64,000 nt of DNA from Candidatus Heimdallarchaeota archaeon (GTDB lineage Archaea > Asgardarchaeota > Heimdallarchaeia > Heimdallarchaeales > Heimdallarchaeaceae), in assembly GCA_030603365.1 (NCBI GenBank), contig JAUVXV010000004.1, forward strand, positions 256,001 to 320,000, given 5' to 3'. Every line of letters begins with the position of its first letter. The stretch's first letter is position 1. This document shows, in pieces, positions 14,735-14,914 of the stretch. The notes under the pieces were generated by a model that was not told the DNA's origin, searched no databases, and saw only the letters and a list, made by a program, of their open reading frames with translations. The position numbers were made by a program, and so were the translations under genes.

Positions 14735-14914
14735 CCTAGTAAGGATTTCAGGTTCGGAATGGGTCTGAGTGTTACCCCCTCACTATGGCCGCGACGTATC
14801 GCAGCGAATGGCTGTTCCCAAGTGATCTCTCAACTTAGTACAGAGCCACACGTCGAAGGGCTTAACTATCCCGAACATCTGGAATGCCTCCAGATGCTTT
14901 CTGACCTTACTAGG
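14735..14914. repeat. Perfect 10-bp inverted repeat forming the outer helix of the 5S precursor BHB
   Basis: CCTAGTAAGG at 14735-14744 and CCTTACTAGG at 14905-14914. Confidence 0.95.
14746..14898 (-). rRNA. rrf: Circularly permuted 5S rRNA (precursor 14735-14914, with terminal BHB motif)
   Basis: On the minus strand the 5S 3' half (GUUAAGCCCUUCGACG...GGGAACAGCCAUUCGCUGCGA, 14866-14799) comes first. It is followed by UACG and then the 5S 5' half (UCGCGGCCAUAGUGAGGGGGUAACACUCAGACCCAUUCCGAACCUGAAA, 14794-14746). Helices I-V, loop C (CCGAAC), loop E and a GAGA tetraloop all fold canonically. Confidence 0.93.

Follow-up and report, generated by a model that had tools for sequence, protein, structure and literature searches.

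The sole 5S-like sequence detected in this genome (3.65 Mb, 89% complete) lies at 14914-14735 on the minus strand of the window, the whole 64,000-nucleotide stretch of contig C14 analysed here. Identical loci shared with named records place Ca. Heimdallarchaeum aukensis and endolithica in the GTDB family of the source, and Heimdallarchaeota AB_125 in its GTDB genus.

Architecture and conservation of the permuted gene

The 5S gene is circularly permuted, with the sequence from the 3' strand of helix III onward placed first and the 5' part placed last, ending in loop C and CUGA, and with helix I closed by a 4-nt loop. Rfam RF00001 matches the permuted 5S partially, and its fold has a z-score of -4.3. 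Signs of a permuted RNA gene are present, namely a 3' part that precedes the 5' part, a BHB formed by leader and trailer, and the rejoined junction in the RNA of relatives. Transcription probably starts near 14915, and the features of the locus are as follows.

14936..14952, minus strand: putative BRE/TATA-like promoter element, recognised by sequence, with an A-rich/TTAAAA motif at the same spacing in genus relatives
14905..14914, minus strand: 5' arm of the outer processing stem, 10 bp with 14744-14735; compensatory change at 9/10 pairs and 95.5% paired in 29 copies
14901..14904, minus strand: 5' strand of the central helix of the outer (step 1) BHB, a mimic of the 5' strand of helix III, paired with 14751-14748
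14898..14900, minus strand: outer 3-nt bulge, with a cut predicted between 14899 and 14898 by the BHB rule
14875..14897, minus strand: hairpin of the putative intron, 9 bp with a 5-nt loop; 97% paired, 4/8 pairs compensatory, z -3.4, no RNA cover
14870..14873, minus strand: 5' strand of the central helix of the inner (step 2) BHB, CGGG (CRGG in the family), paired with 14752-14749 in 29/29
14868..14875, minus strand: "anti-loop-C" 8-mer, which overlaps the inner splice site and is not conserved as an element
14867..14869, minus strand: inner 3-nt bulge, with a cut predicted between 14868 and 14867; RNA joint from 14866/7 to 14746/7
14867, minus strand: first base of the mature RNA
14747..14867, minus strand: mature 121-nt 5S rRNA in permuted order, 3' part first (RF00001 partial match, fold, RNA cover of 14746-14867)
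14798-14795, minus strand: 4-nt loop closing helix I
14768-14765, minus strand: helix III 5' strand
14764-14752, minus strand: loop C
14745..14752, minus strand: 3' splice strand used by both sites, CCUG (14752-14749) at the inner and CUGA (14751-14748) at the outer one
14746/14745 (step 1) and 14747/14746 (step 2), minus strand: predicted 3' cuts
14735..14744, minus strand: 3' arm of the outer processing stem, with pairing in 29 copies
14729..14734, minus strand: T-run, a likely terminator by its sequence

A scan of the locus for sigma-70 promoters and terminators, with a model unsuited to archaea, gave nothing useful. A tRNA-Ser(GCT) gene (window 15044-15128, plus strand) is divergent from the 5S gene across an AT-rich spacer of 130 nt, and ARAGORN predicts introns of tRNA-Asp and tRNA-Glu away from position 37/38 (G000 C1:23829-23935 and C14:101889-101997, predicted positions).

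The 32-nt insert that a sequence-only reading of this DNA had placed in the permuted 5S is found at 14898-14867 (minus strand), and the flank UCAG (14904-14901) is, as that reading held, identical to the helix III 5' strand (14768-14765). The hairpin described in the insert is likewise present, with 9 bp rather than the 8 bp claimed once the closing G-U is counted (arms 14897-14889 and 14883-14875, 5-nt loop, -13.0 kcal/mol), and with a z-score of -3.4 it is equalled in 0.35% of 2000 dinucleotide shuffles. In most of the family the loop of this hairpin reads UGYGW, a pattern from which the loop of this genome (14888-14884) deviates. A UGYGAG-like motif lies just upstream of the single BHB in the leaders of L061, L065 and L069-L071 (other families: f5, including Hodarchaeota-named records), and the UGYGW/UGYGAG motif is a possible candidate for a protein-binding site.

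By DNA search the locus is present in 29 of the 30 other genomes of the family, and 29 complete two-site copies, from five genera of Heimdallarchaeaceae, make up the alignment A1. The outer stem, the outer 4-bp helix and the hairpin are together 95.6% paired in A1, with 14 compensatory pairs and 0/500 shuffles, counts not to be taken as probabilities as the copies are related by descent; slid controls give 24-45%. The insert measures 31-33 nt in the family, and none of the 21 complete genus copies seen is without it; the product is predicted at 121-122 nt throughout, and the column identity of the hairpin is 0.81-0.88 compared with 0.89 for the 5S core. Two copies depart from the rest in other ways: in L203 (G016) loop C has diverged and the 3' bulge contains a U, with both splice helices and the hairpin retained, and L035:1010-1200, the second copy of G025, is degenerate with many changes in loop C and helix III, and is probably a pseudogene.

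The joint in RNA and the register of the inner site

Metatranscriptome contigs from 4 of 10 listed runs, representing four studies, aligned to window 14700-14960; the material is assembled and derives from relatives, rather than consisting of raw reads from this genome, and rare forms are dropped in such contigs. The same joint, from 14866 to 14746, is observed in 4/4 metatranscriptomes, going back 121 nt and equivalent, with one base of slack, to 14867 to 14747. RNA cover is confined to 14746-14867 in the four studies, with none on the insert (14871-14897) or the flanks, which argues against DNA carry-over; as evidence on the insert the missing cover is weak alone and counts only because the joint spans the insert. 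Between the closest RNA contigs and this genome, 4-6 of 121 positions differ, whereas the nearest genome differs at 8. As these RNAs are closer than the nearest genome, and as all 21 genus copies carry the insert, the RNAs very probably come from insert-bearing genes.

At the junction, CCUG is followed by three A's, where a 123-nt model predicts five in relatives and a 153-nt model predicts the hairpin. The run of A's leaves the exact joined bond ambiguous by one or more bases, and the length fits the 121-nt register only. It had been proposed from the sequence that junctions be counted for products of 153 nt against 123 nt; RNA from relatives shows neither. Some contigs, 142-155 nt in length, pass through both the junction and the loop of helix I, a graph that would suit a closed ring but could equally come from a mix of linear forms. 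The 153-nt intermediate, the 32-nt excised piece and the leader-trailer product were absent from the four contig sets, in which rare forms are dropped, and processing intermediates are scarce for the permuted tRNA of C. merolae too (PMC3728597). Two matches to the step-1 junction in metagenome contigs, a collection of mostly DNA, were rejected as chance matches with no 5S context.

We are confident from this joint that the insert is removed from the RNA, and is in that sense a mini-intron. CRGG pairs with CCUG in 29/29 copies (100% paired), and joining of the step-1 ends would leave this core with two 3-nt bulges, one per strand, that read ANA and RAA in the ring. Cuts after the second base of each inner bulge would remove 32 nt (14746 plus 14898-14868) and leave 121 nt, a product predicted to have the normal 2-A bulge of helix III, and a private A>U change of this genome sits at an inner-bulge position discarded by such splicing. 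The second intron that the sequence-only reading suggested is hence supported, but one base away from its register, at CRGG/CCUG and not UCGG/CUGA. By its flanking helices the inner site would fit the relaxed BHB form at most: the intron-side helix is present, although the two pairs that extend the hairpin to the inner bulge are 50% paired without covariation, and the exon side is imperfect. Within the family both CAG and CRGG are nearly invariant, hence neither contributes covariation there.

Proposed order of the cuts and competing routes

The route that we consider probable consists of two ordered BHB cuts, the insert being a nested mini-intron of the tRNA type. In the primary transcript, UCAG would be kept paired to CUGA by the outer stem, each strand having a bulge of 3 nt; EndA would cut at 14899/14898 and 14746/14745, and RtcB would close a 153-nt ring. 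After this ligation the hairpin would directly adjoin the inner helix CGGG/CCUG, then flanked by a bulge of 3 nt on either side; EndA would cut there at 14747/14746 and 14868/14867 to release 32 nt, and RtcB would rejoin a 121-nt 5S in which helix III has its normal bulge of two A's. The genome encodes RtcB and two EndA genes, for alpha and beta subunits, and inspection of the alpha sequence reveals the catalytic Tyr/His/Lys and an L1-type loop. This is consistent with the (alpha-beta)2 type of relaxed specificity, Asgard EndA being (alpha-beta)2 with an L1 loop for relaxed motifs (PMC5829648). The locus has several hallmarks of a BHB intron, with a 4-bp helix and 3-nt bulges, absence from RNA at a fitting junction (in relatives) and encoded EndA and RtcB, EndA cleavage itself being predicted.

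The outer stem is replaced across the five genera while the site geometry stays 4-bp/3-nt, and the outer CAG is invariant in 29/29 copies, also where the stem sequence differs. The first two bases of the outer 5' bulge are variable (AA 14, AC 6, AG 4, AT 3 and TA 2 of 29 copies) and the third is A in 29/29, and the 3' bulge is unconstrained at its third base, 14745 (A 15, T 13, G 1); the variable bases are those that step 1 discards and the invariant ones those that are kept, which is the pattern expected for cuts after the second bulge base. The outer site is also of relaxed form: in 8/29 copies a G-A/A-G mismatch takes the place of its first pair, and no helix follows on the far side of the 5'-strand bulge. 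An alternative outer register, in which N is paired to the third bulge base, was rejected as it fits fewer copies than the one chosen.

Folding of the family copies predicts the outer site in the precursor with a median probability of 0.77, compared with 0.00 for the inner site, and the outer helix reaches 0.99 in the precursor of this genome. In the ring, the inner site is predicted with a median of 0.25 and a mean of 0.42, and helix III with a median of 0.05, although probabilities predicted for 3-nt bulges are rough and vary widely between copies. By prediction only, the second BHB is not fully formed until the first ligation, which brings the hairpin up against the core. The ring energies in this genome, of -48.3 kcal/mol with the inner site, -46.9 with the anti-loop-C pairing and -45.5 with the insert kept, differ little, and the model is rough.

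A route in one step may be possible, but we consider it unlikely. Here the cut is made at the inner site, with the hairpin and outer CAG acting as a leader scaffold in a three-way junction and the insert never entering the ring, or, in a variant, the outer and then the inner cut are made with no ligation between. Such a route yields an identical 121-nt junction, and agrees with the failure to find an intermediate in metatranscriptome or metagenome contigs; other Asgard families, and L033 and L034 (below), make do with the inner site alone, and in L021 it is already preferred in the precursor (predicted 0.76). However, a single step leaves unexplained both the invariance of CAG and the exact 4-bp/3-nt geometry that persist through replacement of the outer stem, and the inner site of the precursor, with its median predicted probability of 0.00, has no continuous flanking helix. 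Furthermore, single-site genes have trailer pairing directly beside the core, which the two-site genes lack. These observations favour the two ordered cuts.

It is highly unlikely that the insert is an expansion segment of the helix III bulge that the ribosome retains, giving a 153-nt 5S, as the sequence-only reading had allowed. Whilst the 5S of Thermoanaerobacterales does have true expansion segments in this bulge, at positions 52-53 (PMC7812874), and the hairpin here is conserved at about the level of the core, the insert is devoid of RNA cover and bypassed by the joint in four studies of relatives, and is flanked by a conserved splice-type helix and bulge.

To a folding switch we give scarcely any credence. 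The same reading had noted that the 8-mer at 14875-14868 is complementary to loop C at 14760-14753, with one G-U, as is indeed the case in this genome, and had taken it for a required switch, one whose pairing melts helix III and keeps loop C from ribosomal proteins while the RNA is immature. Folding predicts the pairing with P 0.82 for the precursor here and, less completely, with 0.2-0.7 for other CGGG-type copies, where the 8-mer may have a minor kinetic role, but it falls to 0.00-0.03 in CAGG-type copies. Across A1 it is paired in 67.7% of cells with a covariation of 0.009, its central pair is broken in 14/29 copies, and the full 8/8 pairs occur in this genome only. Such a lack of conservation in homologs is what the reading itself had named as refuting its proposal. 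At least 8 consecutive pairs with loop C arise in 3% of shuffled inserts, making the match modestly above chance, and 4/8 of its pairs are set by the splice-site motif because loop C resembles CCUG. The G/A variation in CRGG is neutral for pairing with CCUG (G-U or A-U) and disrupts pairing with loop C. When the 8-mer is swapped in silico for relatives' versions or for non-pairing ones, the outer site remains at 0.90-0.97 and helix III is still melted, so the outer stem alone suffices to melt it: the melting of helix III in the precursor agrees with the predicted fold, but its attribution to the anti-loop-C element does not hold. In the ring, the anti-loop-C pairing competes with the inner site (0.45 compared with 0.48). 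The complementarity to loop C is a by-product of the splice-site sequence. A second cut in the UCGG/CUGA register, removing 30 nt and leaving a 123-nt ring, can be practically discounted, for although this helix is able to form here and shares three pairs with the preferred register, its first pair (YCRG/CUGA in the family) is lost in 10/29 copies and the RNA joint goes back 121 nt with three A's.

Distribution in Asgard archaea and relation to known systems

With a covariance model of the permuted core, matches were obtained in 104 of 150 Asgard genomes, and normal-order genes were among them. Most Asgard families inspected have one BHB at this position, often in the exact inner register with the compensatory CGUG/CACG, and others have a single BHB shifted by one or two bases; judging from this distribution rather than from a tree, the inner site is probably ancestral. 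The outer site and the hairpin occur only in this family among the families inspected. In L033 and L034, second copies in Heimdallarchaeum, the outer CAG is absent, the trailer pairs immediately beside CAGG and there is a single BHB, which suggests reversion from two sites to one. The leaders of L033 and L034 retain a hairpin remnant.

Permutation is not universal in Asgard archaea, as the 5S gene of L230:288-406 (family f12) is in normal order and the permuted model matched 1 of 37 f31 genomes. In family f20, L228 and L229 have hairpin inserts of approximately 29-30 nt inside loop C, near the 3' end of the permuted 5S; their site differs from that of the insert here, and they are probably an independent gain. 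L227, of the same family, has a permuted core of 160 nt with approximately 30 extra nucleotides near loop E/helix IV. The best two standard Rfam 5S matches in the class, L043 and L044, adjoin bacterial 23S genes and are probably contaminants in their bins.

Normal-order 5S genes with an insert, belonging to an archaeal lineage unrelated to this one, were found at the following places.

L045:1501-1638, minus strand: normal-order 5S with insert
L251:2674-2810: normal-order 5S with insert
L253, L256:2658-2803: normal-order 5S with insert
L254:117-262: normal-order 5S with insert
L255:2674-2810: normal-order 5S with insert, by Rfam match only

The 5S gene of L045 bears its hairpin in the bulge of helix III, within a frame of CACG-GAA and CGUG-AAA, and its contig is a probable contaminant in a relative's bin, its RpoB being 43.5% and its RpoH 37% identical to those of this genome. 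Relatives found through RpoH share the frame and have different hairpins, with predicted excised pieces of 23, 23 and 32 nt, and genes of this type sit between tRNA genes upstream of rpoH. Their inserts occupy the same site and register as the inner site here, with different hairpin sequences, so that the L045-type gene has the structure predicted for the 153-nt intermediate, excision being predicted only. A pattern search for normal-order, intron-bearing 5S genes in 399 Asgard genomes gave matches at background level, and among the matches listed only L045 is real; the motif was absent from the viral contigs searched. The called gene at L253:4739-6252 (1441 aa) has RpoB' and RpoA' domains, a possible fusion in that lineage.

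The proposed ring would look like a normal-order 5S gene carrying an intron in helix III, of the kind that the other archaeal lineage still encodes, which may suggest that the permutation came from a reopened intron-bearing circle. As a tentative and rather doubtful extension, the family may make its 5S by recursive splicing in a ring, the permutation having arisen by reopening of an intron-bearing circular RNA, with the ribosome carrying a closed 121-nt ring. If two-step splicing is true, 5S maturation in a lineage close to eukaryotes would rely on tRNA splicing twice, and nested introns would extend from tRNA to rRNA, with the 186-nt transcript offering a substrate for ordered EndA cleavage. 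Normal-order genes that carry their insert at this site represent a testable route from intron to permutation.

Nested BHB introns are exemplified by Thermofilum pendens. In archaeal pre-tRNAs with such introns the last BHB forms only after removal of the others (PMC3728597), and the two-step route is alike in that the second BHB would be complete only after the first cut and join, in its use of EndA and RtcB and in its short hairpin intron. It differs in that the host is 5S rRNA, that the first event would be circularisation of a permuted gene, and that one 3' strand would serve both sites, in an order proposed here from prediction.

The SRP RNA of Thermoproteus tenax and T. uzoniensis is likewise a permuted, essential and structured RNA with a leader/trailer BHB, the ends of which are joined into a ring by the tRNA-splicing machinery (PMC4731332), and for this RNA a route from intron to permutation was proposed by Plagens et al. 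2015 (PMC4731332). In contrast to the one BHB of the SRP RNA, whose cleavage by EndA was demonstrated in vitro (PMC4731332), the 5S locus has two stacked sites and a 32-nt hairpin insert, with cleavage predicted from sequence. The permuted intron-containing tRNAs of Cyanidioschyzon merolae and Thermofilum pendens (PMC3728597, PMC3978253) also combine permutation and an intron, with ordered BHB processing, a circular intermediate and scarce intermediates. However, their introns fold independently and are not nested, as the insert here would be, and their ring is reopened by RNase P/Z, whereas helix I of this 5S is closed by a 4-nt loop.

Hairpin inserts at the helix III bulge are also found in the 5S of Thermoanaerobacterales (PMC7812874). 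These segments, and the insert of Halococcus morrhuae 5S, stay in the ribosome (PMC7812874), whilst here splice motifs flank the insert and the RNA of relatives is without it. BHB-dependent circularisation of rRNA is known for circular and permuted archaeal 23S rRNA, the gene of which is in normal order, in contrast to the permuted 5S gene (PMC7758197, PMC12918454); in the cultures studied, 5S is not processed by BHB circularisation (PMC12918454). No literature on a permuted archaeal 5S gene or a 5S intron was found in the incomplete collection searched. Wu et al. 2022 reported that no 5S gene was predictable in two closed Heimdallarchaeum genomes (PMC8813620); the closed Heimdallarchaeum genomes have two permuted 5S copies each.
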